From positions 1 to 26,690 of the forward strand of contig CALWYQ010000066.1 of NCBI GenBank assembly GCA_944385815.1: a stretch of 26,690 bases of DNA, given 5' to 3'. The notes beneath the pieces were generated by a model. It was not told the origin of the DNA. It did no database searches and saw nothing but the letters and a program-made list of their open reading frames with translations. This DNA is from an uncultured Oscillospiraceae bacterium (GTDB lineage Bacteria; Bacillota; Clostridia; Oscillospirales; Oscillospiraceae). This document shows positions 1-13,749 of the stretch, one piece after another; the first letter of the stretch is position 1; each line of letters begins with the position of its first letter. A program made the position numbers and the translations under genes.

Positions 1-829
1 CCTGGCTGATGGCGGCTTTCAAGGCATAGCCTATGCTGCCGCCTATAATGGCGTTGGGTACAAAGGCATATTTGAATATCATGGCAAAGGTCTCAGGCAC
101 ATACCGGATGCGGCATATGAGCAGCACCAATCCGCCCAGGATATACAGGGCCGCCATTACCGGCACCATCTTCTCCGTCACCCCGGCAATGCGCTGTATT
201 CCGCCAAGGAAAACGAACACAGCCACCAGCGCCACCATCAGCCCCACTATCCAGCTGTGGATGCCGAATGCCGTGCTGCAAGTTTCGCCTATTGAATTGG
301 ACTGTACCATGCAGCCCATAAAGCCCAGGGCAAGTATTATGGCCACGGCAAAGAATCCGGCCAGGAATTTCCCCATGGGGCCCTTCACAGCCTTGCGGAT
401 ATAGTATACGGGGCCTCCGGCGATGCTGCCGTCAGCTCTGATCTCCCGGGTCTCCTGAGCCAGAACAGCCTCGGCATAGATAGTGGCCATGCCGAAAAAG
501 GCGATTATCCACATCCAGAAAATGGCCCCGGGGCCGCCGGTTAGTATCGCGCCCGAGGAGCCGACGATGTTGCCCGTGCCCACCTGCGCCGCTATGGCCG
601 TGGCCAGGGCCTGGAACGAGCTCATGCCGCTGTCGTGCTTGAAGCCCTTGAGCTTGAAATTCCCGAAGGTCCGGCGCATACCCTCGCCGAAGCAGCGCAC
701 CTGTATGAAGCGGGTGCGTATGGTGTACCACAGGCCCACGCCTATGAGCAGGAACACAAGGATATAGTTCGAGAGATACTCGTTAATCTTTACTACTATG
801 CCGTACAGCGTTTCTTCCAGCCCGGACAT
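1..829 (-). CDS. Sodium:alanine/glycine symporter (AGCS family). N-terminal 276 codons only; the gene continues past the left edge of the window.
   Basis: Absent from the ORF track because it is open at the window edge. My translation of the reverse strand from ATG 829..827 reads MSGLEETLYGIVVKINEYLSNYILVFLLIGVGLWYTIRTRFIQVRCFGEGMRRTFGNFKLKGFKHDSGMSSFQALATAIAAQVGTGNIVGSSGAILTGGPGAIFWMWIIAFFGMATIYAEAVLAQ... with no stop down to base 1. The SFQALxxAxAAxVGTGNIxG block and the repeated hydrophobic helices are typical of AGCS transporters. A GGAGG SD (841..837) lies 7 nt upstream of the ATG. Confidence 0.9.
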   Translation of the reverse strand, partial: MSGLEETLYGIVVKINEYLSNYILVFLLIGVGLWYTIRTRFIQVRCFGEGMRRTFGNFKLKGFKHDSGMSSFQALATAIAAQVGTGNIVGSSGAILTGGPGAIFWMWIIAFFGMATIYAEAVLAQETREIRADGSIAGGPVYYIRKAVKGPMGKFLAGFFAVAIILALGFMGCMVQSNSIGETCSTAFGIHSWIVGLMVALVAVFVFLGGIQRIAGVTEKMVPVMAALYILGGLVLLICRIRYVPETFAMIFKYAFVPNAIIGGSIGYALKAAISQ

Positions 830-848
830 TTTTTCTCCTCCCTCTGCA

Positions 849-878
849 AACAAAAAAGCTGCGGAAAAGCCCGCAGCC
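849..878 (-). terminator. Intrinsic terminator forming the expression platform of the glycine riboswitch.
   Basis: On the minus strand: GCTGCGG (877..871), loop, CCGCAGC (864..858), followed by TTTTTTGTTT (857..848). It lies between the aptamers and the symporter SD. Confidence 0.8.
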
Positions 879-879
879 G

Positions 880-1085
880 AGAAAGGACAGGCCCAAAGCC
901 GGGCATACGCCCGGTGAGCCTGAGTCTCTGTCCTTTTGCCTGAGAGATTAGCGGCCCGCGCCGCCTTGCACCTTCGGCCCTCATTGCTGAGCTTCTCCAG
1001 AGTTCATCCACGCACAGTCTCCGTCCCGCAGGACGCCTGAGAGTTTCACTCCTTCGGCAAGCTGAGCTTTTTCCTGAGCGCTTCA
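880..1085 (-). promoter_or_regulatory. Tandem (two-aptamer) glycine riboswitch in the 5' leader of the AGCS symporter gene.
   Basis: The minus-strand RNA reads ...GCGCUCAGGAAAAAGCUCAGCUUGCCGAAGGAGUGAAACUCUCAGGCGUCCUGCGGGACGGAGA...ACUCUGGAGAAGCUCAGCAAUGAGGGCCGAAGGUGCAAGGCGGCGCGGGCCGCUAAUCUCUCAGGCAAAAGGACAGAG. It contains the glycine-aptamer hallmarks twice: CUCUGGAGA, (A/G)CCGAAGG(N)GCAA, and CUCUCAGGCAAAAGGACAG. AAAGGACAG (936..928) is complementary to CUGUCCUUU (890..882) in the platform, which gives an alternative pairing. Confidence 0.85.
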
Positions 1086-1216: not shown

Positions 1217-2308
1217 TTATGAGTTCTTTTTAAAGCGGAACTGCGACGGCGTCATGCCGACGGCCTTTTTAAAGGTCTGCATGAAGTGCTTTTCATGGCG
1301 GTAGCCTACAAGCTCCGCTATGCGCTGTATGCTGAGCTGGTCCTGCAATAAGAGCTCCTTTGCGTGGTCTATGCGGACCTTGTGGATATAGGCCGTGAGC
1401 GTCACGCCCATTTTCTCCCTGAAAAGGCTGCTCAGATAGGGCGGGGAGACAAAAATCGCCTCCGCTATCCTCCCGAGGGTGAGGCTCTCCGCGTAGTGCC
1501 GGTCGATGTACTCAACGGCGGCCATGACGACGGACGAGCGCTTCCTGCCCTCGGCGATGAGGCAGTGCGCGTCCAGCGCGGCGGAGTGCAGGGCCTCGGA
1601 GAGCTGGGCGCAGGCGTTCTCGCGCGTCCAGCTGCGGTCAAAAAACACGTTCCCGGCCGGGAAGCTGCCGCTGCGCTCCATAACGAGCCGGCATATCTCA
1701 AAATACAGCATTTCGCCGTAATTGAGCGCCGCGGACAGCGGCAGGCCGGGCAGGCATTCGGCGAGGAAGCCGTCCACACTGCGCTTCACGTCCTCCGCGG
1801 AGCCCGCCGAGACGGCGGCGAGCACCCGGCGCTCGCCTTCCACGGGGTAACGCCCGGCGGAGGCCCTCGGCGCCTCGGCCTGGCAGTCCTTTACGAAGGA
1901 TATGAAATCATTGTTCGCAATGCCGCGGCTGACCTCAACATGCAGCAGGGCGCGCTGTATGGCCTCCATCAGCTCCCTGGGCGGGAAGGGCTTGAGCAGA
2001 TACTCCTCCACCTTCAGGCGTATGGCCTGCTGGGCGTAGCTGAATTCGTTATAGCCGCTGACTATTATAAAGGCCGGCGGGTTCGGAAGCTCCTCGCGGC
2101 AGCGCTCTATGACCTGTATGCCGCTGAGCTTTGGCATATATATGTCCAGGATGGCGATGTCCGGCCTGCAGCCGAGTATCATCTGCAGGGCCTCCTCCCC
2201 GTCGCCGGCGGCTCCTACCAGCTCAAGGCCGTTGGCGGCCCAGTCTATATACTGGATTATATTGTCCCTGGCTTCAATCTCGTCGTCTGCCAGCAGGATT
2301 TTTATCAT
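1217..2308 (-). CDS. Two-component response regulator, REC domain plus AraC-type HTH (YesN-like).
   Basis: 363 aa. N-terminal receiver motifs: ILLADDE, AILDIYMPKLSG, LLKPF. C-terminal AraC/XylS double HTH: LGRIAEAIFVSPPYLSSLFREKMG and IAELVGYRHEKHFMQTFKKAVGMTPSQFR. GGAGG (2321..2317) lies 8 nt upstream of the ATG. The start is 3 nt after the kinase stop codon. Confidence 0.93.
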   Translation of the reverse strand: MIKILLADDEIEARDNIIQYIDWAANGLELVGAAGDGEEALQMILGCRPDIAILDIYMPKLSGIQVIERCREELPNPPAFIIVSGYNEFSYAQQAIRLKVEEYLLKPFPPRELMEAIQRALLHVEVSRGIANNDFISFVKDCQAEAPRASAGRYPVEGERRVLAAVSAGSAEDVKRSVDGFLAECLPGLPLSAALNYGEMLYFEICRLVMERSGSFPAGNVFFDRSWTRENACAQLSEALHSAALDAHCLIAEGRKRSSVVMAAVEYIDRHYAESLTLGRIAEAIFVSPPYLSSLFREKMGVTLTAYIHKVRIDHAKELLLQDQLSIQRIAELVGYRHEKHFMQTFKKAVGMTPSQFRFKKNS

Positions 2309-2311
2309 GGC

Positions 2312-4147
2312 TTACACCTCCCGGTAGTCGTTTGGGATGGACAGATAGACCCCCGCCCCGCCGCCGGGCAGGTTCCGCAGCGTAAAGCCGCAGCGCTCCT
2401 GGTAACGTATCCTCAGCCTTTCATATATGTTGCGCAGCGCGAAGCGCTCCCCGCCCTGCTCCCCGCCGGGCCCGGACTTGAAATATTCCTCCAGCCTGTC
2501 CGGCCAGTGCTCGAGCAGCTCCTGGCTGAAGCCGACGCCGTTATCCTCCACCGCGAAGCTGAGCGTCCCGCCGTCCCCGGAGACGCCGGCCGAAATGCGC
2601 ACGGAAAAGTGCGTGTCGCCGCTGTCCATGCCGTGGACTATGCTGTTTTCCACAATGGGCTGGAGAATAAGCCTCGGTATGAGCGCGTCGTATACGGCCG
2701 GGTCGGCGTCTATCGTCCAGTGGATGCGGCTGCCGAAGCGGTACTGCTGCAGCTCGAGATAGTGGCGCACAAGGTCAAGGCTGCTGCGGACGCTTGTCAT
2801 CTCGCCGCCGCGGTTCAGGCTCAGCCGGAAGAACTGGCCGAGGTTGTATATTATGTCCGCCGTCGGCTCGTCGTGGTTCTTGAGCGCGCTCCAGTAGGCG
2901 GTGTGCAGCATGTTATAGAGGAAATGCGGGTTTATCTGCATCTGGAGCATGGAGAGCTCCGCCTCCTTCTCGCGCAGCTTGAGCACATAGTTCAGGTCTA
3001 CCAGCCGGCGGTTTTCCTCAACCATGTTGTTGAAAACCCGGCCGAGCCGTCCGATGTCGTCGGCATATTTAAAATCCGCCTTGGCGCCGTAGTCGCCCTT
3101 GGAGAAACGCCGCATGGAGTCCGAGAGCTTGTTGAGCGGCCGGGTGAGCATGTTTACGAATATGCGCGAGAGCAGCAGCATGGCCACGAGGAAAACGCAG
3201 ATTATCAGCAGTGCGGAGCGCATTATCGAGGTCTCGCGCCAGAAGGACGAGCTGTCCCGGTCTATGACGCAGCTTATAAAGGGCGTCCCCGCGCAGGACT
3301 GGTAGTAGAGGTTGAAGCCCTCGCCGTTAAAATCGGTCTGGTACACGGCGGGCTTCTCCGCGGCGTGCGAGCAGAGGTAGCCGATAAGCTCCCCGGGCAG
3401 GTCTATGCCCGTGCGGTTCAGGGCGACTTCGTTATTGTGCGAGAGCAGTATCGTGCTCTTCTGCGTGTCCGCCGCCATGTCGGAGCCGAGCAGCTTGCGC
3501 ACGTCCACGGAGACGGCGACGGCGCCGATGATCTCCTTGGTGTTGTAATCCGTCATCTTCTTCCACAGCACCAACTTTGGGGAGTGGTCCATGCTCATAA
3601 AATAATCCGAGTAGGCGGGGATATACTCCCACTCCGACTCGAGATAGGAGCCGACGAGCCGGTCGAAGGGCCGCTCGGGGTCGCGCCCGCTCTGGGGCAC
3701 CGGGCCGTAGGAGTTATCTATGGAGACAAAGTCTATCGCCTCGCCGCGGATATTGTAAAATACCACGCTCAGGAGGTACATCTTGAAGCGGGCGCTCTTG
3801 AGCAGCTCCTGCGTCCTTTCAAGCGGGACGGGAAGGCCGTCGTTGCTCATATTGACAAGCTCCTGGGCCTCGGTTGAGGAGATATAGTATTCAATGAGCC
3901 CGTCGAGGTAGCGCTGGTCCTTCTCTATCAGGATGCGCACGTATTCGAGGGACTGCAGCCCCTTTGCGTCCTGCCTGTCGCGGATGTACCGCAGCCCGCT
4001 GTCGGCGAGGACGAGGGAGGTGAAAATGAGCACGGCTAAAAGGATGCCGGAAAACATGAGCGAAAACTTGGTGCTCAGCTTGAGGTCCAAAAACCTTTTG
4101 ACCGCCTTCCCGATAAGGCCGTGGCGCCTTCCTTGGCCAGTGTGCAT
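2312..4147 (-). CDS. Sensor histidine kinase, YesM/LytS-type (His_kinase plus HATPase_c) with two TM segments and a HAMP-like linker.
   Basis: TM1 is FSLMFSGILLAVLIFTSLVLA. There is an extracytoplasmic segment of about 270 aa, then TM2 ALLIICVFLVAMLLLSRIF followed by LTRPLNKLSDSMRRF. The H-box is QINPHFLYNMLH. The ATPase boxes are VENSIVHG and EDNGVGF. I prefer the ATG at 4147 (MHTGQ...) because GGAGG (4159..4155) sits 7 nt upstream. The track start at 4162 is the alternative. Confidence 0.9.
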   Translation of the reverse strand: MHTGQGRRHGLIGKAVKRFLDLKLSTKFSLMFSGILLAVLIFTSLVLADSGLRYIRDRQDAKGLQSLEYVRILIEKDQRYLDGLIEYYISSTEAQELVNMSNDGLPVPLERTQELLKSARFKMYLLSVVFYNIRGEAIDFVSIDNSYGPVPQSGRDPERPFDRLVGSYLESEWEYIPAYSDYFMSMDHSPKLVLWKKMTDYNTKEIIGAVAVSVDVRKLLGSDMAADTQKSTILLSHNNEVALNRTGIDLPGELIGYLCSHAAEKPAVYQTDFNGEGFNLYYQSCAGTPFISCVIDRDSSSFWRETSIMRSALLIICVFLVAMLLLSRIFVNMLTRPLNKLSDSMRRFSKGDYGAKADFKYADDIGRLGRVFNNMVEENRRLVDLNYVLKLREKEAELSMLQMQINPHFLYNMLHTAYWSALKNHDEPTADIIYNLGQFFRLSLNRGGEMTSVRSSLDLVRHYLELQQYRFGSRIHWTIDADPAVYDALIPRLILQPIVENSIVHGMDSGDTHFSVRISAGVSGDGGTLSFAVEDNGVGFSQELLEHWPDRLEEYFKSGPGGEQGGERFALRNIYERLRIRYQERCGFTLRNLPGGGAGVYLSIPNDYREV

Positions 4148-4220
4148 ATACGGAGCCTCCATGATTATAATTCCCTGCCTCTATTTTACTACGCAATGCA
4201 ACTCCCCGGCGCGGAGGGCA

Positions 4221-4262: not shown

Positions 4263-5465
4263 TTATACGACGAGCGGCTCGACCGTTTTGCCGTTGAGGA
4301 AGCAGCAGCCGCCGTCTGTTACGACGACGTTCTGCCTCAGCGTCAGGACGCCTACGGAGGCGTGGCGCACGGAGGCGGTGAGCGTGAGCGTCATGCCGGG
4401 GCGGAGGACAAATTTGCTGCCGGCGCGCAGCAGCGGCCCGTCGATGCGGCCCCAGCCGATGCCGGAGCCGGCGTAGCCCGGCTGCACTACCCAGCCTGCC
4501 TTGCCCTGCGCGGCGGCAAAGGCGTCCATGGCCTCGGCCGCGTCGCCGGCGCAGGCGCCGGGCCTGACGGCGGACATGGCGCGCTCTATCATGCCGGAGG
4601 CGAGCTCCCAGGCCGGCTGCTGCTCGGGCTGCACCCCGCCGACAACGATGTTTGCGGTGAAGGGCGCGTTGAGCTCCCGGCGCACGGCGCCGCCCTCCAC
4701 GTGGATCGTCGTGCCGGGCGCGTCGGGGATGACGACGGCGTCGGAGGCCGGGCAGCCGGCGCACAGGGCGCGCCCGGCCCCGGCGAGCACGCTCATGTAT
4801 GTGAAGTGCTCGCTGCCGGCGAGATAGCCGGCCTTGGCTATCTCCCTGTAGAGCTCCAGCTCGGTCATGGCGCCGGGCCTGACGGCCTCGAGGCCCCTCG
4901 CCGCGGCGCGGCGGTTTATCTCCTCCGCGTCGCGCAGGTTCCTGAGCTGGGCCTCGCTCTTTACGGCGAGGATATCCCAGAAGAGCTCGGAGGAATCGAC
5001 AAATTCGAGCCCGGGGAACTCGCGTCTGAGGTCGTTGAACATGGCGATGTCCATGTGCAGGTGGAAGCCGCCGCTGAGCTCGCAGCCTATGCGGCCCTTA
5101 GTGAAGCCGAGGTGGCGCAGGGTGTAGCACAGCGCGTCATAGTAGTTGAGGGCCACGCCGTAACGCCCGGAGGCGTCGAAGAAGTAGAAGTCCTCCTTCT
5201 CGAGGCAGGTGGTGTACATGGCGGTGTCCACGGCGCTGAAGGAGCCTACAACGCCGAAATTCCCGTCGGCGCCGAGGAAGATAAGGCCCGGCGTGGACAG
5301 CTTGCTCTTCCACGCGACGGAGCGCAGGCCGGTCAGGTAGCAGACCATGGCCTTGGAGGAGCCCATTATGCAGTCGAGGCCGGCCGCCTTTATCTTTTCG
5401 GCCGCCCCGGCCATGCGGTCCTTGAACTCGGAAACGGGATACTCAAGCATCGGTGATTGACGCAT
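4263..5465 (-). CDS. M24-fold (creatinase/prolidase family) protein with degenerate metal-binding residues.
   Basis: 400 aa with a Creatinase_N-like N-terminal half and a pita-bread C-terminal half. It aligns by eye to the adjacent paralog, anchored on (M/A)VRPGA and PGM. The five canonical M24 metal-ligand positions read E (IHVEGG), P/F (NAPFT), S (AGSGIG), T (LTLTAS) and Q (LRQN) instead of D, D, H, E, E. A GGAGG SD lies 9 nt upstream of the ATG at 5465. Confidence 0.85.
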   Translation of the reverse strand: MRQSPMLEYPVSEFKDRMAGAAEKIKAAGLDCIMGSSKAMVCYLTGLRSVAWKSKLSTPGLIFLGADGNFGVVGSFSAVDTAMYTTCLEKEDFYFFDASGRYGVALNYYDALCYTLRHLGFTKGRIGCELSGGFHLHMDIAMFNDLRREFPGLEFVDSSELFWDILAVKSEAQLRNLRDAEEINRRAAARGLEAVRPGAMTELELYREIAKAGYLAGSEHFTYMSVLAGAGRALCAGCPASDAVVIPDAPGTTIHVEGGAVRRELNAPFTANIVVGGVQPEQQPAWELASGMIERAMSAVRPGACAGDAAEAMDAFAAAQGKAGWVVQPGYAGSGIGWGRIDGPLLRAGSKFVLRPGMTLTLTASVRHASVGVLTLRQNVVVTDGGCCFLNGKTVEPLVV

Positions 5466-5496
5466 AATCTTTTACCTCCCTTTGCAGCAGTATTGG

Positions 5497-6705
5497 TCAG
5501 GAGCGCCGCGGGACATAGATGTCCTGCAGCTGAGGCGTCAGATTCTCGCAGCCGTCCTCAGTTACAAGATAGTTGTTCTCAAGGACGATCTGGCCCTCAA
5601 CGGGGTGGATAATGGTCGGCTCGAAGGCAAAGACCATGCCGGGCTTGAATTCCTTGTCGGCAAACACGCTCTTGATAACCGGCATCTCGTGGACGTCGAG
5701 GCCGACGCCGTGGCCGGAGTTATTCATGGTCAGGCAGATATCCTCAACGCCGTGGGCGCGCATGAAGTCGTCGTGCGCCTTGCAGAAGTCGCCGATCCTG
5801 GCGCCGGGCCTGACCATTGCGATGCAGGATTTGTGGCACTCGAGGCTGATGTCATAGAAGTCCTGCTGGGCCTTAGTGGGCGGATTGAGCTTGCCTATGC
5901 GTATCATGTCGGAGACATAGCCCTTATAGGACGGGCCGCTGTCGGCAAAAACGCACCAGTCGGGGTCCTCATACACGCGCGCGCCGGGCATGCAGTTCGG
6001 CTGCGGGCGGTCCGGGCCGAATTCGACAATGAGCTGGTACTCAAAGTCGTCGGCGCCCATGTCGAAGGAAGCGGCGACATACTCGTGGTACATCTCCTCC
6101 TCGGTGGTCTTGCCGAGCTCGAGCTTGTCCATGGCGGCCTTGAAGGCGTCTACGGACATGCCGCAGCACTTGCGCATTACCTCGATCTCGCGCGGGGACT
6201 TTATCTCGCGCAGGTCGAAGATATATTTGGCGAAGTCCATGGGCTGCATACCGGGCAGGGCCTCAAACAGGGCCGTGTAGTCGCCGTAGGTTATGCGCAT
6301 ACGGGCGACAAGGCCGGTCTCGGTGCCGAGCCTGCCGGAGGTCACGCCGAGCCGGCTGAGGGCGGAGACGATGGCCGGGACAAAGGCCTCGTGGCTGCCC
6401 GGCTCGCCAAAGCCGTCGAAGGCAAGAATCTCGCTTTCGGCGAGGCAGCAGGTGGCGAGGGCCGTGGGCAGCTGGCGCGTCGAGGTAACAAGCGCGGCCT
6501 TCCCGCCGCGCGCGGCGAGCAGCATCGCGGGATAGGCAAACTCGCTGTTCCAGCCGGCGGAGCGGTAGTCGCAGAAATAGCGCAGGTTTTCCTCGTTTGT
6601 CAGCAGTACGGCCTCGCAGCCCGCCTCCTCTATTTTGGCGAAAAGGCCGGCCATCCTCGCTTCGTACTCGTCGAGGGGGAACTCCAGCGTGGGAGCGCTT
6701 CTCAT
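5497..6705 (-). CDS. M24 family metallopeptidase (Xaa-Pro dipeptidase/aminopeptidase-like) with intact metal ligands.
   Basis: Canonical ligands are present: D (FADSG), D (YVSDMIR), H (SGHGVGLDVHE), E (FAFEP), E (VLENN). I moved the start to the ATG at 6705 (MRSAPTLEFPLDEYEARMAG). GGAAAGGAGAG lies about 7 nt upstream, and the longer track ORF (to 6738) would read through the GC hairpin at 6726-6750. Confidence 0.88.
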   Translation of the reverse strand: MRSAPTLEFPLDEYEARMAGLFAKIEEAGCEAVLLTNEENLRYFCDYRSAGWNSEFAYPAMLLAARGGKAALVTSTRQLPTALATCCLAESEILAFDGFGEPGSHEAFVPAIVSALSRLGVTSGRLGTETGLVARMRITYGDYTALFEALPGMQPMDFAKYIFDLREIKSPREIEVMRKCCGMSVDAFKAAMDKLELGKTTEEEMYHEYVAASFDMGADDFEYQLIVEFGPDRPQPNCMPGARVYEDPDWCVFADSGPSYKGYVSDMIRIGKLNPPTKAQQDFYDISLECHKSCIAMVRPGARIGDFCKAHDDFMRAHGVEDICLTMNNSGHGVGLDVHEMPVIKSVFADKEFKPGMVFAFEPTIIHPVEGQIVLENNYLVTEDGCENLTPQLQDIYVPRRS

Positions 6706-6725: not shown

Positions 6726-6750
6726 GCCGCCCGCGCAATGCGCGGGCGGC
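6726..6750 (-). promoter_or_regulatory. Intercistronic GC-rich stem-loop directly after the binding-protein gene.
   Basis: Perfect 11-bp stem GCCGCCCGCGC / GCGCGGGCGGC with a 3-nt loop. On the minus strand it is followed only by CUUUGG, so it is not a strong terminator. Confidence 0.6.
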
Positions 6751-6762
6751 GCGGATTTGTGC

Positions 6763-8319
6763 TTACTTGGAAGTTATAAAGCGGTACTCGGAATACCACT
6801 CGGGGTCGAGGTCAAGGCCGGTGAGGTCCTTGCTGATGCCCCAGATATTGTCCGCAAAGCGCACCCACAGCCAGGGCATTTCGTCGCGGAGCAGGGTCTG
6901 AAGCTCGGTGTAATACCCGGCGCGCAGCTCGGCGTCCATCTCCTTGGAGGCGAGGTCGAAGAGCTCGTTTACCTCGGGGTTATCGTAGTTGATCCAGTCG
7001 GCGCCGTCGTTGCCGGCCTGGAACATGGCGCGGTAGAACTCGCCGTCGTTGCCGCCGGCGACAAAGCCTAACAGGAAAGCCTGGGACTCGCCGTTATAAA
7101 TCTCGTTGAGCTGGGCGGAGAACTCCATGGACCGCACCTCGGTGTTGACGCCTATCTCCTTCCAGGCGTTGGCCAGCATCTGGGCCAGGGATATGCGGGC
7201 CTGGGACTCGTTGCAGCTCAGGATAAGGTCAAAGCCGTCGGCATAGCCGGCCTCGGCCAGGAGCTGCTTTGCCTTCTCGACGTCCTGCTCATACTGCTGG
7301 TCCTCGCCGGCGGGCACGTAGCAGGAGAGCGCCGGGGTCACAGGGCCGTCGGCCGGCAGGCCGCTGGCGAAGGCTATCTCGGAGATGGTGTCCATATCTA
7401 CGGCGTAGCGGAGCGCCTGGCGGACGCGCTTGTCGCTCAGCGGCTCATAGGCGGAGTTGAGGCCGCAGTAGTTGGTGGTGTAGCTCGGGGCGGAAACCAC
7501 GTCCACGACCTCGCTGTTTTTGAGCATATCAACCTGGGCGGGGGCGAAGTTGTAGGCTATGTCAACCTCGCCGGACTCGAGCGCGAGGGCGCGGGTGGTG
7601 TCGTCGGCGATGGTGCGGATGATGAGGTTCTTGAACTCGGGCAGCTCGCCCCAGTACTCCTCATTGCGCTCAAGGATGATGCGGTCGCCGGCAATCCAGT
7701 CAACAAACTTGTACGCGCCGGTGCCGACGGGCTGGCGGCCGTAGGCGTCGTCGCTGCCGGCGGCCTCGACGGCGCTCTTGCTGACGATGAGGGTGCCGTT
7801 GTTGGTGAGGTAGGAGAGGGCGGCCGGGAACACGTCCTTGGTGCCCAGCTCTATGGTGTACTCATCGACTATCCTGGTCTTGGCGGGGTCAAAGGGCTCG
7901 AAAATCATGGACTTCTGCGAGCAGGTGGCGCCGCGGTCAAAGGTGAACTTCACGTCCTCGGCGGTCATCTTGCTGCCGTCGTGGAAATAGACGTCGTCGC
8001 GCAGGTGGAAGCGGATGGTGTAGTCGTCAACGTATTCCCAGCTGGTGGCCAGGCTGGGCACGATTTCGCCGGTCTCATTGTCCTGGCGGACAAGGCCGTC
8101 GTAAATCTGGACGTTTACAAGCGCGGCGGGGACCATGTTCTGGTTGGGGGGATCGAGCACCGTGGGCTCGGCGTAGTTGCCGATAACCAGGGTGTCCTTA
8201 ACCTCTCCGTCACCGGTGTTTTCCGCGGACGGGTCGCCCTCCTGGGGGCTGCCTCCGCAGGCGGAGAGCAGCAGCACCATGGCGAGCATAAGGGCGAGAA
8301 TGCGCAGGTGAGATTTCAT
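6763..8319 (-). CDS. ABC transporter substrate-binding lipoprotein, family 5 (peptide/nickel/opine type, DppA/OppA-like).
   Basis: The signal peptide with lipobox is MKSHLRILALMLAMVLLLSAC-GG. The length of about 518 aa and the sequence pattern are typical of SBP_bac_5. I prefer the ATG at 8319 because GGAGG (8330..8326) abuts the track ATG at 8325 but lies 6 nt from 8319. Confidence 0.9.
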   Translation of the reverse strand: MKSHLRILALMLAMVLLLSACGGSPQEGDPSAENTGDGEVKDTLVIGNYAEPTVLDPPNQNMVPAALVNVQIYDGLVRQDNETGEIVPSLATSWEYVDDYTIRFHLRDDVYFHDGSKMTAEDVKFTFDRGATCSQKSMIFEPFDPAKTRIVDEYTIELGTKDVFPAALSYLTNNGTLIVSKSAVEAAGSDDAYGRQPVGTGAYKFVDWIAGDRIILERNEEYWGELPEFKNLIIRTIADDTTRALALESGEVDIAYNFAPAQVDMLKNSEVVDVVSAPSYTTNYCGLNSAYEPLSDKRVRQALRYAVDMDTISEIAFASGLPADGPVTPALSCYVPAGEDQQYEQDVEKAKQLLAEAGYADGFDLILSCNESQARISLAQMLANAWKEIGVNTEVRSMEFSAQLNEIYNGESQAFLLGFVAGGNDGEFYRAMFQAGNDGADWINYDNPEVNELFDLASKEMDAELRAGYYTELQTLLRDEMPWLWVRFADNIWGISKDLTGLDLDPEWYSEYRFITSK

Positions 8320-8417
8320 TTTCATCCTCCTATGTTCTGATTTTAATGTCGGACGCCCGCGCGCTTATATCCATGGGCGGGCCGGACGCCGACCGACATC
8401 CTTGCTTGCGCCGCGCC

Positions 8418-9374
8418 TCAGCCGGCGGAGCCGGCCAGGTGGCAGGCGACAAAGTGGTTTGGCCCGAGCTCCCTCAGCTCCGGCGTAGTCTCCCGGCACA
8501 GGTCCGTCGCATGGGGGCAGCGGCTTGCGAAGCGGCAGCCGGGGCCGGGGTTTATCGGGGAGGAGAGCTCGCCCTTGATTATTATCCTCTCGCGCTTAGC
8601 GTGGATGGACGGGATGGGTATGGCCGAGAGCAGGGCTTTGGTGTAGGGATGCAGGCTGTTGGTAAAGAGCTCCTTCGCAGGGGCCTTTTCAACAAGCTGG
8701 CCGAGATACATGACGCAAATGTGCTGCGAGATGTGCCTCACGACGGAGAGGTCGTGGGTTATGAACATGAGCGTCAGGCCGAGCTCGGCCTGCAGCTCCT
8801 GCAGCAGGTTGAGTATCTGAGCCTGGATGCTGACGTCGAGGGCGGAAACCGGCTCGTCGCAGACTATGAAGTTAGGGCCGAGGCAGAGGGCGCGGGCTAT
8901 GCCTATGCGTTGGCGCCGGCCGCCGTCGAACTCGTGCGGGTAGCTGTTTATGTTCCTCTGCGCGAGGCCGACCAGGTCCATGAGCTCGGAGATGCGGCGG
9001 CTGTACTCCTCCCGGGACCTGGTCACGCGGAAAATGCGCAGCGGCTCGCCGATAATCTCGCCCACGGTCATGCGCGGGTTGAGCGAGGAGAAGGGGTCCT
9101 GGAAGATTATCTGCATCTTCCTGCGCAGCTCCTTGAGCTCCCTGCCGCGCACGTTCGTTATGTCCTTCCCCTCAAAAAACACCTGGCCGCCGGTGGGCTC
9201 AAGAAGGTGGAGTATGGTCCGGCCGAGCGTGGACTTGCCGCAGCCGCTCTCGCCGACGATGCCGAGGGTCTCGCCCTGCTCTATCTGGAGGCTCACGTCC
9301 TCAACGGCGTGCAGGAAGCCCTTAGGCGTTTTAAAATATTTTTGGAGCTTTTTTGTTTCCAGAATCACTGACAT
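8418..9374 (-). CDS. ABC transporter ATP-binding protein (DppF/OppF-like).
   Basis: Walker A GESGCGKST, signature-like FDGGRRQRIGIARAL, Walker B FIVCDEPVSALD, and the C-terminal oligopeptide-transporter extension with CRFASRCPHATDLC. Confidence 0.93.
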   Translation of the reverse strand: MSVILETKKLQKYFKTPKGFLHAVEDVSLQIEQGETLGIVGESGCGKSTLGRTILHLLEPTGGQVFFEGKDITNVRGRELKELRRKMQIIFQDPFSSLNPRMTVGEIIGEPLRIFRVTRSREEYSRRISELMDLVGLAQRNINSYPHEFDGGRRQRIGIARALCLGPNFIVCDEPVSALDVSIQAQILNLLQELQAELGLTLMFITHDLSVVRHISQHICVMYLGQLVEKAPAKELFTNSLHPYTKALLSAIPIPSIHAKRERIIIKGELSSPINPGPGCRFASRCPHATDLCRETTPELRELGPNHFVACHLAGSAG

Positions 9375-9428
9375 GGCAACCCCTCATTCCGCCGGCAGCC
9401 CGGCATGGTTTTGGTTTGGACGCCGCCC

Positions 9429-10409
9429 TTACAGCAGGCCCTCCTCGGCCAGCACGCACTTGACCAGATGCCCGGGAGCAACCTCGACCTGGGAGGGGTC
9501 GTGCGTCATGCAGATCTCCCTCGCCTGCGGGCAGCGGCCGCAGAAGCTGCAGCCCTCGGGGAGGTCTGCGGAATTGACGGCCGGGCCGGTGATGGGCTGG
9601 AGCCTTTCCACGTCCTTGTCAAGGCTGGGTATGGTTGCGAAGAGGCACTTGGTGTAGGGATGCGACGCGTGGTCGAAGATGTCCTCAAGCGTGCCGTACT
9701 CGACTATCTCGCCGGCATAGATCACGGCCACCCTGTCGCAGGTCTCGGCCACTACGCCGAGGTCGTGGGTTATGAGCAGCATGGAGGTGCCGGAGGCGTC
9801 CTTGAGCTCGCGGATGAGGTCCAGGACCTGCGCCTGGATGGTTACGTCGAGGGCGGTCGTGGGCTCGTCGGCTATCAGCAGCTTCGGGCTGCAGGCCAGG
9901 GCCATGGCGATGACGACGCGCTGCTTCATGCCGCCGGAGAACTGGTGCGGGTATTCCCCGGCGCGCTCCGGCTGTATGCCGACCTTCTTGAGTATCTCCT
10001 GCGCCTGCCTCGCGGCGTCAAGGCGGGAAACATGCCGGTGCAGGCGTATCAGCTCGGCTATCTGGGCGTCTACTCGCATGACGGGGTTGAGCGCGCTCAT
10101 CGGGTCCTGGAATATCATCGACACGTCGCGGCCGCGCACGGCGCGCATCTCCCTGGCGGAGAGCGAGGTTATATCCCTGCCGCCGAGCTCTATGCTGCCC
10201 TGGACTATCCTGCCCGTATTCTTGGGCAGGAGGGACATAATGGCGAGGGCTATCGTGGTTTTCCCGGCGCCGGTCTCGCCGACAAGGCCGAGGGTCTCGC
10301 CGCCGCGGATTTCAAAGGAGACGTTGTTCACCGCCTCCACGACAGCCTTGTGCGTCTCGTAGTGGACCACAAGGTTGCTTACCTTGAGCAGGACTTCATT
10401 GTTATCCAT
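9429..10409 (-). CDS. ABC transporter ATP-binding protein (DppD/OppD-like).
   Basis: Walker A GETGAGKTT, signature FSGGMKQRVVIAMAL, Walker B LLIADEPTTALD, and a C-terminal Cys-rich tail CSFCGRCPQAREIC. Confidence 0.93.
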   Translation of the reverse strand: MDNNEVLLKVSNLVVHYETHKAVVEAVNNVSFEIRGGETLGLVGETGAGKTTIALAIMSLLPKNTGRIVQGSIELGGRDITSLSAREMRAVRGRDVSMIFQDPMSALNPVMRVDAQIAELIRLHRHVSRLDAARQAQEILKKVGIQPERAGEYPHQFSGGMKQRVVIAMALACSPKLLIADEPTTALDVTIQAQVLDLIRELKDASGTSMLLITHDLGVVAETCDRVAVIYAGEIVEYGTLEDIFDHASHPYTKCLFATIPSLDKDVERLQPITGPAVNSADLPEGCSFCGRCPQAREICMTHDPSQVEVAPGHLVKCVLAEEGLL

Positions 10410-10430
10410 AGCATTCCTTTCTGCCAGCGC

Positions 10431-11348
10431 TCAGTTCTTCGAGCGCGGGTCGAAGGCGTCGCGCAGGCCGTCGCCGAAGAGGTTCAGCGCGAATACGGTA
10501 ATCATTATCATTACACCGGGGAACACGACTATGTACCACTTGTCCAGGCTGGTGATGTACTGCTTGGCCTGCGTGAGCATACAGCCCCATTCCGGAGTGG
10601 GGGGCGCGACGCCGAGTCCGATGAAGCTCAGCGCGGCCGCCGTGGTTATGCCGCCGGCCACATCCAGCGTGGCGCGGACGATTATGGGGCCGAGGGCGTT
10701 CGGGAACATGTGCCTGAGTATAAGCCTCGCCTTGCTCGCGCCTATGGCCCGGGCGGCCTCTATATACTCCTGGTCCTTTACGGTCAGTATCGCCGCGCGC
10801 ACCGTCCTCGAAAACGAGGGCACAAGGGCTATGGTTATGGCGATTATCAGGTTTGTCATGCCGGTGCCCAGCGCGGCGCAGATGGAGATGGCCAGCAGCG
10901 TGCCGGGGATGGACATGAACACGTCGCAGATGCGCATGATTACGTTGTCCGATACACCTCCGTTCACCGCGGAGAGGGAGCCGAGCAGGCCGCCTAACAG
11001 CAGGCTGCAGAGCATGGAGATGAGCCCGACGGAGAGCGAGATGCGCGTGCCGTAAACCACGCGGCTGAAGATATCGCGGCCGAGGTCGTCGGTGCCCATG
11101 GGGTGCTCCGCGCACGGGGCGATGAATATCCGGCTGTAGTCCTGGTCGTCATAGCCGTATCCGGCAAATGCCTGCGGGAAAAGCGCGAAAAGCACCAGGA
11201 TGAGTATTATCACAAGCCCGAATACGGCGGCGCGGTTGCGCGAGAGGCGGTAGGCGACCTCCGCCCACACGCCCACGGCCTTGTCCTGGCTCTTGTTTTT
11301 CTTCTTTTTGTTCAGGCGTTCCATCGCCTCGGTGTGCATTTTTGCCAC
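10431..11348 (-). CDS. ABC transporter permease (DppC/OppC-like).
   Basis: Multi-TM protein with the BPD_transp_1 EAA-type loop YIEAARAIGASKARLILRHMFPNA. The track start is a GTG at 11348, with GGGGGGA about 7 nt upstream. The ATG at 11339 (MHTEAM...) is the alternative. Confidence 0.88.
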   Translation of the reverse strand: MAKMHTEAMERLNKKKKNKSQDKAVGVWAEVAYRLSRNRAAVFGLVIILILVLFALFPQAFAGYGYDDQDYSRIFIAPCAEHPMGTDDLGRDIFSRVVYGTRISLSVGLISMLCSLLLGGLLGSLSAVNGGVSDNVIMRICDVFMSIPGTLLAISICAALGTGMTNLIIAITIALVPSFSRTVRAAILTVKDQEYIEAARAIGASKARLILRHMFPNALGPIIVRATLDVAGGITTAAALSFIGLGVAPPTPEWGCMLTQAKQYITSLDKWYIVVFPGVMIMITVFALNLFGDGLRDAFDPRSKN

Positions 11349-11395
11349 GATTCCATCCCCCCGTCACAATTTAATTTCCCAAGCCCGCGGCCCGC

Positions 11396-12346
11396 TCAGT
11401 CGGCGCGCTTTTTGCCGCGGCTGTACTGCGACTTGATGCGCGGGTCAACATAGGCGTATATGATGTCCACCAGCAGGTTTACAAGGCTGAACACGATCGC
11501 GAGCAGCAGCACCCCGCCCTGGACGACCGGGTAGTCGCGGTTTTTGATGCTGTCTACCATGTACTTGCCGAGGCCCGGGATCGAGAACACGGACTCGGTC
11601 AGGACGGCGCCGCCGAGCATGGTGCCCAGCTGTATGCCCACGACGGTGATTATGGGTATGAGCGCATTTTTGAGCGCGTGCTTGACAATTATTATCTTCT
11701 CGCTCAGGCCCTTGGCGCGGGCGGTGACTATGTAGTCCTGGCAGAGCACCTCCAACATGCTCGAGCGCGTCATGCGCGTTATCGTGGCCATGCCCACCAT
11801 GCTGGAGGTGAAGGCCGGCAGTATCCAGCCCGTCCATGTGTCCACGCCCGAGACAGGCAGCCATTTGAGGTAGATAGAAAACAGCAGTATCAGCATCATG
11901 CCCGCCCAGAACGCCGGCATGGAAACGCCGATAAGCGCAAAGCCCGTCGAAATGTGGTCTATGATGGTATTCTGCTTGACCGCCGATATTATGCCGAGCG
12001 TTATGCCCACCACCGTCGATATGATTATGCTCAGCAGGGCCAGCTTCGCCGTCGTGGGGAAGCGGTCCATGAGCTCGTCTATGACCGGGCGCTTCGTCTG
12101 ATAGGAGGTGCCGAGGTCAAAGCCGGTGACTATGCCCTTGACATAGTTGAAAAACTGCACGTACAGCGGGTCGTTGAGCCCCAGCTCCTCCTCAAGGGCG
12201 GCCACGGCCTCGTCCGTCGCGCCCTCGCCGGCAAGCAGCTCGGCGGGGTTGCCCGGTGAGATATGGTTCATTATGAACACGACAAGGATCACGCCAAGCA
12301 GCACCGGTATCATCATGAGGATACGCTTTCCGATGTATTTTGCCAT
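11396..12346 (-). CDS. ABC transporter permease (DppB/OppB-like); first gene of the operon.
   Basis: 316 aa. N-terminus MAKYIGKRILMMIPVLLGVILVVF. EAA-type loop YIVTARAKGLSEKIIIVKHALKNA. GAGGGGG SD upstream of the ATG at 12346. Confidence 0.92.
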   Translation of the reverse strand: MAKYIGKRILMMIPVLLGVILVVFIMNHISPGNPAELLAGEGATDEAVAALEEELGLNDPLYVQFFNYVKGIVTGFDLGTSYQTKRPVIDELMDRFPTTAKLALLSIIISTVVGITLGIISAVKQNTIIDHISTGFALIGVSMPAFWAGMMLILLFSIYLKWLPVSGVDTWTGWILPAFTSSMVGMATITRMTRSSMLEVLCQDYIVTARAKGLSEKIIIVKHALKNALIPIITVVGIQLGTMLGGAVLTESVFSIPGLGKYMVDSIKNRDYPVVQGGVLLLAIVFSLVNLLVDIIYAYVDPRIKSQYSRGKKRAD

Positions 12347-12553
12347 GCCTCTGCCCCCTCAGTCACGATTTCGCGTTTTAAAACGAATAATGCCTATAAT
12401 ATAGCACTGCGCCGGCGCGCGGAAAATCCTCAGAATTAAGATTATTTCTCCATTTTTAATGTATTTGCGGCAGACGGCTACGAGGGCCCCGGAGCCCTGT
12501 GACGGACGGGCTCAAAACAAGAAAAACCGGGGACTTAATCATAATTTTAAGGA

Positions 12554-12582
12554 TTTTTATCGCGGCATTAATTAGTTATAAT
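12554..12582 (+). promoter_or_regulatory. Candidate promoter for the GcvT-family gene.
   Basis: Exact TATAAT at 12577-12582 in an AT-rich stretch. The best -35 at a 17-nt spacing is only TTTTTA (12554-12559). This is a weak call. Confidence 0.3.
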
Positions 12583-12636
12583 TTCGTTAACAGGCAAGTG
12601 CAAAAGCGAAAAAACTTTCAATGGAGGATGATTATT

Positions 12637-13749
12637 ATGAAGCATACGCCATTCCATGTGAACCACGCGGCCGCGCAGGGGCAGTTCGGGCCCGTGGGCG
12701 AGTGGACCGTCCCGTCCTTCTATGCCGGAGCCGAGGCCGAGCACCGCGCCACGCGCGAGCGGGTCACGATGACGGACTTCAGCACCATGTGCAAATTTGA
12801 TTTCAAGGGCCCGGACGCCGCCGGCTTTTTGCAGAAGCTGCTGGTTAACAACGTCAACAAGCTCCGTCCCGGCAAGGCGCTCTATTCCGCCATGTGCAAC
12901 GAGGCCGGGGAGTTTGTGGACGACGTCACGCTCTACATGCTGGGCGAGGGGCACTACATACTCATCGGCGGCATCCCCGCAAGGGCAAGCGACTCGGCCT
13001 GGTTCCAGGCAAAGCAGGCCGAGTTCGGCTATAAGAGCGTTTATATCACGGACATAACCTCCGCCCTCGGCGTGCTCAGCGTGGCGGGGCCGTATTCGCG
13101 GGACACCTTCCGCAAGCTCTGCGACGGCCCGTTCACGCAGCTGAAGTTCTTCGAGTTCTGCGGCGTATGCATCGGCGGCCATGACTGCCTGCTCTCGCGC
13201 ACCGGCGTCACGGGCGAATTGGGCTATGAGATCATCGCCAACGCCGAGGACTGCCCGGACATCTGGGACGCCGTGCTTGAGGCCGGCGCGGAATTCGGCA
13301 TAATGCCCTGCGGCATGGCGGCCAGCGGCACGCTGCGCATGGAAAAGGGCTATATCTCCGGCAGGGAGTTCCTCGGCCATACCAACCCCTATGAGATGGG
13401 GCTCGGCTGGTCCGTCGCGCTGGATACGGACTTCATAGGCCGCGAGGCCCTGCGCAGCGTCCGCGACGCCGGCCCGGCCAGGAAGCTCTGCGCGCTGAAA
13501 ATGCCGGACAGGGGCATCGTGGCCCCGGCGCAGGCCGAGGTCGTTGCGGACGGCGCCGTGATTGGCAGGGTGACCAGCTCCGCGTGGCTGCCGACGCTGG
13601 ATATCAGCTATGCGATGACCATAATCCCGGCCGAATACGCCGTGCCCGGCACCCGGGTGTCCGTAAAGCTCCCCGAGGCCGGAATTGTCGAGGCCGAGGT
13701 CGTTGAGAAGAACCTCTACGACCCCTCCGGCTCGCGCATAAAGGGCTGA
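12637..13749 (+). CDS. Aminomethyltransferase-family (GcvT fold, folate-binding) protein, standing alone without gcvH/gcvP.
   Basis: 370 aa from the ATG at 12637 (MKHTPFHVNHAA...), with GGAGG at 12623-12627 and a 9-nt spacing. The GcvT-family pattern includes TPFH, MTDFSTMCKFDFKGPDA..FLQKLL.N, LSRTGVTGELGYEI and RMEKGY. The track GTG start at 12499 would extend through the AT-rich promoter region. Confidence 0.88.
   Translation: MKHTPFHVNHAAAQGQFGPVGEWTVPSFYAGAEAEHRATRERVTMTDFSTMCKFDFKGPDAAGFLQKLLVNNVNKLRPGKALYSAMCNEAGEFVDDVTLYMLGEGHYILIGGIPARASDSAWFQAKQAEFGYKSVYITDITSALGVLSVAGPYSRDTFRKLCDGPFTQLKFFEFCGVCIGGHDCLLSRTGVTGELGYEIIANAEDCPDIWDAVLEAGAEFGIMPCGMAASGTLRMEKGYISGREFLGHTNPYEMGLGWSVALDTDFIGREALRSVRDAGPARKLCALKMPDRGIVAPAQAEVVADGAVIGRVTSSAWLPTLDISYAMTIIPAEYAVPGTRVSVKLPEAGIVEAEVVEKNLYDPSGSRIKG

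Follow-up and report, generated by a model that had tools for sequence, protein, structure and literature searches.

A conserved tandem pair of M24-fold genes in an uncultured Oscillospiraceae bacterium as a probable obligate heterodimer with one working active site

Positions 1 to 26,690 of contig CALWYQ010000066.1 (assembly GCA_944385815.1, an uncultured Oscillospiraceae bacterium) make up the stretch of 26,690 nucleotides analysed here, which we refer to as the window. On its reverse strand lie two adjacent genes for proteins of the M24 (creatinase/prolidase) fold, the upstream of which we call alpha and the downstream beta. We propose that alpha and beta probably form an obligate heterodimeric M24 hydrolase with a single working active site. 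Under this proposal the conserved N-domain loop of beta, GLRSVAWKSKLSTPGL, would act in trans to complete the di-metal pocket of alpha, and the reciprocal half of the dimer - the beta pocket together with the alpha loop, DYRSAGWNSEFAYPAM - would have degenerated. The arrangement would go back to a single ancient tandem duplication of the gene for a homodimeric enzyme, after which, in several lineages, beta would have lost its metal ligands and alpha its loop consensus, so that each chain now needs the other. The enzyme is predicted to cleave an amide bond in some small compound of peptide-like nature that enters through the apparently co-transcribed Opp-type importer, and the YesM/YesN-type two-component system in the same conserved cassette probably controls the operon.

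A sequence-only reading of this DNA had described adjacent M24 paralogues of 402 and 400 residues, 31 base pairs (bp) apart at the end of an importer operon, and the coordinates, Pfam matches and terminator hairpin (Table 1) agree with that description. The length of alpha is counted from an ATG; a TTG at 6738 would give 413 residues, and the ATG is favoured because all homologues begin MRxxP. The ribosome-binding site of beta lies about 8 nucleotides before its ATG. The Peptidase_M24 model (PF00557, cut-off 23) matches alpha with 138.4 bits and beta with 66.3 bits, and Creatinase_N (PF01321, cut-off 22) matches alpha with 38.3 bits and beta with 21.7 bits, just under the cut-off; despite the latter score, the N-domain of beta is spanned when its fold is aligned at full length with DoeA and prolidases. 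Alpha and beta share 26% identity from end to end (E = 5e-41).

For the metal-ligand columns, HMMER alignment with prolidases of known structure, 5cdl among them, and MAFFT alignment with more than 100 relatives give the same result. Alpha carries D255, D266, H332, E362 and E376, which are all five M24 positions, so the earlier assignment of D/D/H/E/E to the upstream protein holds. At the same five columns beta has E257, P268, S334, T363 and R377, and none of the ligands is retained. The motifs that had been picked out by eye are all in place and the five ligands of the downstream protein are gone as claimed, with one correction: the last column is R377, not the neighbouring Q378. Beta is also without the second-shell His of the GLDVHE motif, and has His at the position of Arg135.

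In alpha, Asn237 takes the place of the PHG-loop His of prolidases (His243 of E. coli PepP). The whole clade of 400-residue proteins, single genes included, has NCPPS at this place (NCMPG in alpha; residues 235-239, window 5989-6003), with the Cys beside the Asn nearly invariant across the clade, while in beta the column varies among orthologues, being Gly (Gly237 here), Asp, Glu or Asn. Because Asn replaces the PHG-loop His throughout the clade, classical Xaa-Pro specificity should not be assumed, and the motif suggests that the chemistry of these proteins may differ from that of the classical Xaa-Pro peptidases. All NCBIfam equivalog scores for alpha and beta are far under their cut-offs. 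AlphaFold2 monomer models have predicted local distance difference test (pLDDT) scores of 92.4 for alpha and 83.8 for beta, the least confident part of beta being its N-domain loop. The best fold matches of alpha are small prolidases and DoeA (target-normalised TM-score up to 0.91), and that of beta is the ectoine hydrolase DoeA 6yo9 (query-normalised TM-score 0.78).

Given that beta has lost every metal ligand, what can be said of its maintenance? In a large protein collection, beta orthologues form about 26 full-length clusters at 59-99% identity, followed by a gap. The reading frame is open in all of them, and more than 100 columns are invariant down to 59% identity. Alpha lies 20-32 bp upstream of beta in every orthologous locus with enough flank (one contig ends too early). 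The pair thus recurs outside its source genome, as the sequence-only reading would have it, on evidence that comes mainly from metagenome contigs. When the same genome pairs are compared, the non-synonymous rate (dN) is 0.23-0.30 for both genes, with identities of 58-66% for alpha and 61-69% for beta. The synonymous rate (dS; 0.5-0.9 by NG86) looks saturated or biased in these G+C-rich genes, and therefore only dN is used and no claim is made on dN/dS. Since its amino-acid rate equals that of alpha and its adjacency to alpha is kept, the sequences indicate that beta is not decaying and is under selection. The family is nevertheless rare: 22 clusters were found at E ≤ 1e-30 among 1.84 billion representatives, and relatives occur in 2 of 400 genomes sampled from the same family, in none of five sampled from the same genus and in one of 399 sampled from the class. 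The named records of beta orthologues are four in the GTDB scan, all from metagenome-assembled gut genomes of Oscillospiraceae or Candidatus Scatomorpha. A scan of JGI metagenome contigs with dead betas - we call a protein live if it keeps D/D/H/E/E and dead if its metal site is lost - gave only three distant single genes.

The association of the two genes extends well beyond these orthologues. Alpha relatives at 37-40% identity also lie directly upstream of a second M24 gene, and wider relatives at 30-40% identity likewise occur as tight pairs, alpha then beta. In a maximum-likelihood tree of 64 sequences, four verified single genes (G481, G149, L025 and L026) are basal and the paired genes form a clade inside the single genes (support 98/99). 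Within it the first genes of pairs form an alpha clade (93/95), every member of which has D/D/H/E/E, and the second genes are found on the beta side; alpha and beta branch in the same order. The exception is locus L034, a younger live-live pair whose genes are 53% identical and whose first gene (P0136) is on the beta side, so that the alpha-first rule is not followed there. Tree and gene order together indicate that the alpha/beta pair is an old, co-inherited unit. At one locus (L009:3302-8188), an Opp importer is followed by a run of four M24 genes, alternately alpha and beta and starting with alpha. One pair, the first, is live-live and the other live-dead, and the loop consensus is gone from the alpha of the live-dead pair alone.

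The ligand columns of the beta side differ strongly from lineage to lineage. Two second-of-pair genes are live with DDHEE (L009 g2 and L031 g2). Elsewhere the five columns read RSHGE (L029), ERYTQ (L009 g4), SYGST (L006), SNFCA (L010), TCFSS (L007), GYASC (G298) and, in the window's clade, EP[S/T/A]xR. These replacements have nothing in common, and this speaks against a single new chemistry common to all of them at the five columns.

A reciprocal pattern that speaks for a dimer of unlike chains concerns a loop in the N-domain. The 400-residue relatives carry it as an 8-residue insertion that is absent from small prolidases, with the consensus G-[FL]-[QR]-S-I-V-W-x-S-K-[IV]-S-[TN]-P-G. Residues 46-61 were compared with a scoring matrix derived from 13 canonical relatives, for 9 of which the gene context is not known. 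Mean scores were 40.8 bits for alphas with a live partner and 34.4 bits for live betas, compared with 10.5 bits for alphas with a dead partner and 35.3 bits for dead betas; in all 11 pairs with a dead beta, the beta loop outscores the alpha loop. Identities within groups follow the same pattern. Among the dead betas of L006, L007, L010, G298 and L009 g4 the loop is 93% identical, against 45% elsewhere in the protein, and in the alphas of the same group it is 56% identical against 70% elsewhere. In the window's clade the corresponding values are 87% against 61% for beta and 63% against 61% for alpha. The live-live pairs (L009 g1/g2, L031 and L034) have the consensus loop in both genes, and alphas depart from it only when the partner is dead. 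By comparison, replacement of the N-domain Arg (R135 of alpha), with His or Tyr in its stead, is confined to dead betas. R135 therefore tracks the protein's own metal site, and the loop that of its partner.

A loop that follows the partner's site is what would be expected if the N-domain of one chain reached the pocket of the other. The loop aligns to the stretch CSFGRPY of creatinase (1chm), which we take to hold the Phe62 and Arg64 that reach the active site of the other subunit. In DddP, the tunnel wall at the pita-bread site of one chain is formed by the N-domain of its partner, and the same embrace of two chains is found in creatinase and prolidases (PMC4108388). An alpha homodimer would place the alpha loop at a live site, and the loop should then stay conserved, which is not what is observed. 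Of the two interpretations offered by the sequence-only reading, the heterodimer is thus the one that has gained in strength, because the pair is old, co-inherited and of fixed order and because the loop follows the state of the partner's metal site; the other, a metal-independent hydrolase, is a candidate of lower probability. The physical association of the two chains, the role of the loop in trans and the chemistry are features that we infer.

Several points weigh against an obligate heterodimer with one dead half. First, the correlation between loop and partner, perfect as it is, comes down to one or two contrasts that are phylogenetically independent, and a test would need more. Second, the asymmetry of the loops is milder in the window's own clade than in the other dead-beta group. 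Third, both parts of the supposedly degenerate half are conserved in the window's clade: the altered loop of alpha fairly so (NSEF.YPAM), and the pocket segments of beta as ELNAPFT and LRQNV. The 'dead half' may therefore still do something, either by binding a ligand or by metal-free catalysis. Finally, the trans role assigned to this exact loop is an argument by homology and from the structure of creatinase.

If the second half is not simply dead, beta could be a metal-independent hydrolase of the DoeA/creatinase type, whose substrate would be what alpha releases or a compound related to it, such that the pair would be two sequential enzymes. The best fold match of beta is DoeA/EutD and its best NCBIfam match is TIGR02993; its first two ligand columns read E and (N)AP, as in DoeA-like proteins; and its pocket segments are among the best conserved of the B clade, which also has clade-specific invariant Cys and His residues. 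However, beta reaches only 54.6 bits with TIGR02993, where the cut-off is 613, and the DoeA-like clade (EPYPS) is in the other half of the tree. As the clade is distant and the scores are far under the cut-offs, we read the E/AP likeness to the DoeA-like sequences (P0165, P0183, P0185 and P0188) as convergent. Nor do the other residues fit well: the column of the creatinase loop His is variable within the beta clade, as described above, that of T363 is free to vary from one beta orthologue to the next (T, V, L, I, Q or A), the residues that sister dead betas carry in all five columns are unrelated, and the alpha loop, which would cover the beta pocket, has left the consensus kept by active relatives. 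We consider this explanation unlikely. Membership of beta in the DoeA or creatinase families was rejected on scores, tree and His position.

A heterodimer might also form in which the altered pocket of beta and the altered loop of alpha make up a non-catalytic ligand-binding site regulating the single active site. This would account for the conservation of both halves of the 'dead' site in the window's clade, and allosteric behaviour involving the N-domain loop has reportedly been seen in the prolidase of Lactococcus lactis; structures of loop mutants (7n02, D36S, and 6xmr, H38S) are among the matches of our fold search. The alpha loop of the other dead-beta group, on the other hand, varies freely (56% identity), which fits simple decay better, and we regard a regulatory site as rather improbable. 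It is similarly doubtful that the beta pocket (E257, ELNAPFT, LRQN), residues C128, H135, C235 and C238 and the alpha loop NSEF.YPAM together constitute a new mononuclear or metal-free site, used to catalyse a second step on the product of alpha or to sense an effector. C128, H135 and C235 are invariant in the B clade, have no counterparts in relatives and lie near the family-wide C238, a constellation that might represent a small metal site, new to the family, where the two domains meet. If such a second site exists, one heterodimer would hold two different chemistries. The view that beta is a functionless, decaying duplicate, or that the two proteins act independently, would explain the loss of all catalytic residues of beta, but is strongly disfavoured by the open frame in all orthologues, a dN equal to that of alpha, the more than 100 invariant columns, an adjacency and order strictly kept over deep divergence and the high conservation of the beta N-domain loop.

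The surroundings of the pair are summarised in Table 1. On the reverse strand the order of transcription is two permeases, two ATPases, solute-binding protein, alpha, beta, kinase and response regulator, and this nine-gene cassette is conserved in the same order at loci L001-L004, with differing flanks. The hairpin directly after beta is likely the terminator of an importer-alpha-beta operon. Given this hairpin and its T run right behind the beta gene, importer, alpha and beta are apparently transcribed as one unit; the genes for kinase and regulator, further downstream, seem to make up a second. The best solved relative of the solute-binding protein is 5u4o, of unknown ligand, and its other best solved relatives bind varied or unknown ligands.

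Table 1. Features of the alpha/beta pair and its conserved gene neighbourhood in the window
Feature	Position	Strand	Basis or remark
Alpha: canonical di-metal M24 hydrolase with creatinase/prolidase N-domain, 402 residues	5497..6705	(-)	PF00557, PF01321, alignment to 5cdl
Beta: M24-fold paralogue, all five metal-ligand columns replaced, 400 residues	4263..5465	(-)	PF00557, alignments
Alpha-beta spacer, 31 bp, with GGGAGG ribosome-binding site	5466..5496	(-)	Sequence reading
Beta loop codons, residues 46-61, GLRSVAWKSKLSTPGL	5283..5330	(-)	Keeps family consensus; 35.1 bits
Alpha loop codons, residues 46-61, DYRSAGWNSEFAYPAM	6523..6570	(-)	Departed from consensus; 6.6 bits
14-bp G+C hairpin then TTTT, directly after beta stop codon	4227..4257	(-)	Sequence
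Family-5 solute-binding lipoprotein of importer	6763..8325	(-)	Pfam SBP_bac_5, 304 bits
Opp/Dpp-type ATP-binding cassette (ABC) importer	8418..12346	(-)	Pfam BPD_transp_1, OppC_N, ABC_tran, oligo_HPY
Importer permeases	11396-12346, 10431-11348	(-)	Pfam
Importer ATPases with oligo_HPY tail	9429-10409, 8418-9374	(-)	Pfam
YesM-type sensor histidine kinase	2312-4162	(-)	Pfam HAMP, His_kinase, HATPase_c
YesN-type response regulator with AraC DNA-binding domain	1217-2308	(-)	Pfam Response_reg, HTH_18

A second G+C hairpin (6726-6753) lies between the stop codon of the binding-protein gene and the start of alpha, with no clear T run on the coding strand, and may determine how much binding protein is made relative to enzyme. 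At loci L006, L007, L010, L009 and L034, Opp permease and ATPase genes stand beside one or two proteins of about 270 residues with TPR repeats, and no family-5 binding-protein gene was seen within the stretch examined. Towards the end of the window beyond the regulator, a glycine riboswitch (Rfam RF00504, 56 bits; 918-1010, reverse strand) precedes the gene for a Na+:alanine/glycine symporter (2-853, reverse strand), which runs off the window; both are outside the conserved cassette. Divergent from the importer operon is a lone gene for a GcvT-family aminomethyltransferase (12499-13749, forward strand) that scores just below its cut-offs (280.6 bits against 300, and 221.9 against 235.85) and is not present at L001-L004. 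The idea that a wider 14-kb 'glycine' neighbourhood forms part of the unit was rejected, as only the nine-gene cassette recurs at those four loci, with flanks that differ.

To our knowledge, the enzymes of the M24 family (methionine aminopeptidase, prolidase and aminopeptidase P, as well as creatinase) have been described as single-gene enzymes. If our proposal is correct, the family would gain a new architecture, that of a bacterial M24 heterodimer with a pseudo-subunit, and it would be clear why 'inactive' M24 genes persist beside active ones. The pair would also provide a clean natural case of a homodimer becoming an obligate heterodimer by reciprocal loss, of the pocket in one chain and of the partner-serving loop in the other. 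Since live-live and live-dead pairs coexist, even within one operon (L009), the evolutionary steps can be reconstructed and tested. A practical consequence would be that alpha expressed alone may yield an inactive or atypical enzyme.

How does the pair compare with known systems? Prolidases of the PepQ type (1pv9, 1wy2, 3q6d and 5cdl) and YpdF share with alpha the pita-bread fold, the N-domain, the five ligands and the GHGxGLxVHE motif. Prolidase/PepQ-type M24B enzymes are described as homo-oligomers of one gene product, whereas here there are two diverged subunits, one of them without a metal site; prolidases also have the PHG-loop His where alpha has Asn, and the small prolidases are without the 8-residue loop insertion of the alpha and beta relatives. 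Creatinase (1chm, 1kp0 and 7yto) is a metal-free member of the fold whose N-domain loop is homologous to that of alpha and beta and whose active site is shared between two chains; it is a homodimer, unlike the proposed alpha/beta enzyme. Its catalytic His, the catalytic base, sits in the PHG-type loop, and at that column beta has the variable Gly237. No creatinase-family match to alpha or beta was found among the NCBIfam hits.

DoeA/EutD (6twj, 6twk and 6yo9; TIGR02993) is likewise about 400 residues long, with the longer N-domain, and in DoeA-like sequences, as in beta, the first two ligand columns hold E and AP. Against the family models (TIGR02993/NF038259) beta scores 54.6 and alpha 56.8 bits where 613 is required, and the tree, with full support, groups the DoeA-like sequences (E/P/Y/P/S) in a clade of their own, in the half that does not contain beta. 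DoeA works with the deacetylase DoeB/EutE, and no gene for a deacetylase of this type was seen in the nine-gene cassette.

Lost metal ligands on an M24 fold are otherwise a feature of Ebp1/PA2G4 and Spt16, which resemble beta in this respect. Unlike beta, these are eukaryotic proteins of the methionine aminopeptidase type that act on ribosomes or chromatin and are without an active M24 paralogue as partner. A review of pseudo-peptidases gives Ebp1 as the sole M24 pseudo-enzyme and no bacterial M24 heteromer (PMC11266112), and we found no description of one in the literature. The joint encoding of two paralogous subunits of which one has metal ligands and the other has none, as with alpha and beta, recalls instead the metallopeptidases with pseudo-subunits. 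In the mitochondrial processing peptidase (MPP alpha/beta) and the bacterial hetero-subunit peptidases of M16B, paralogues form a heterodimer in which the metal is bound by one subunit, while the ligand-less one contributes residues on which function depends (PMC11266112). Although these enzymes differ from alpha/beta in clan, fold (M16, not M24) and geometry, they are the closest functional analogue of the pair.

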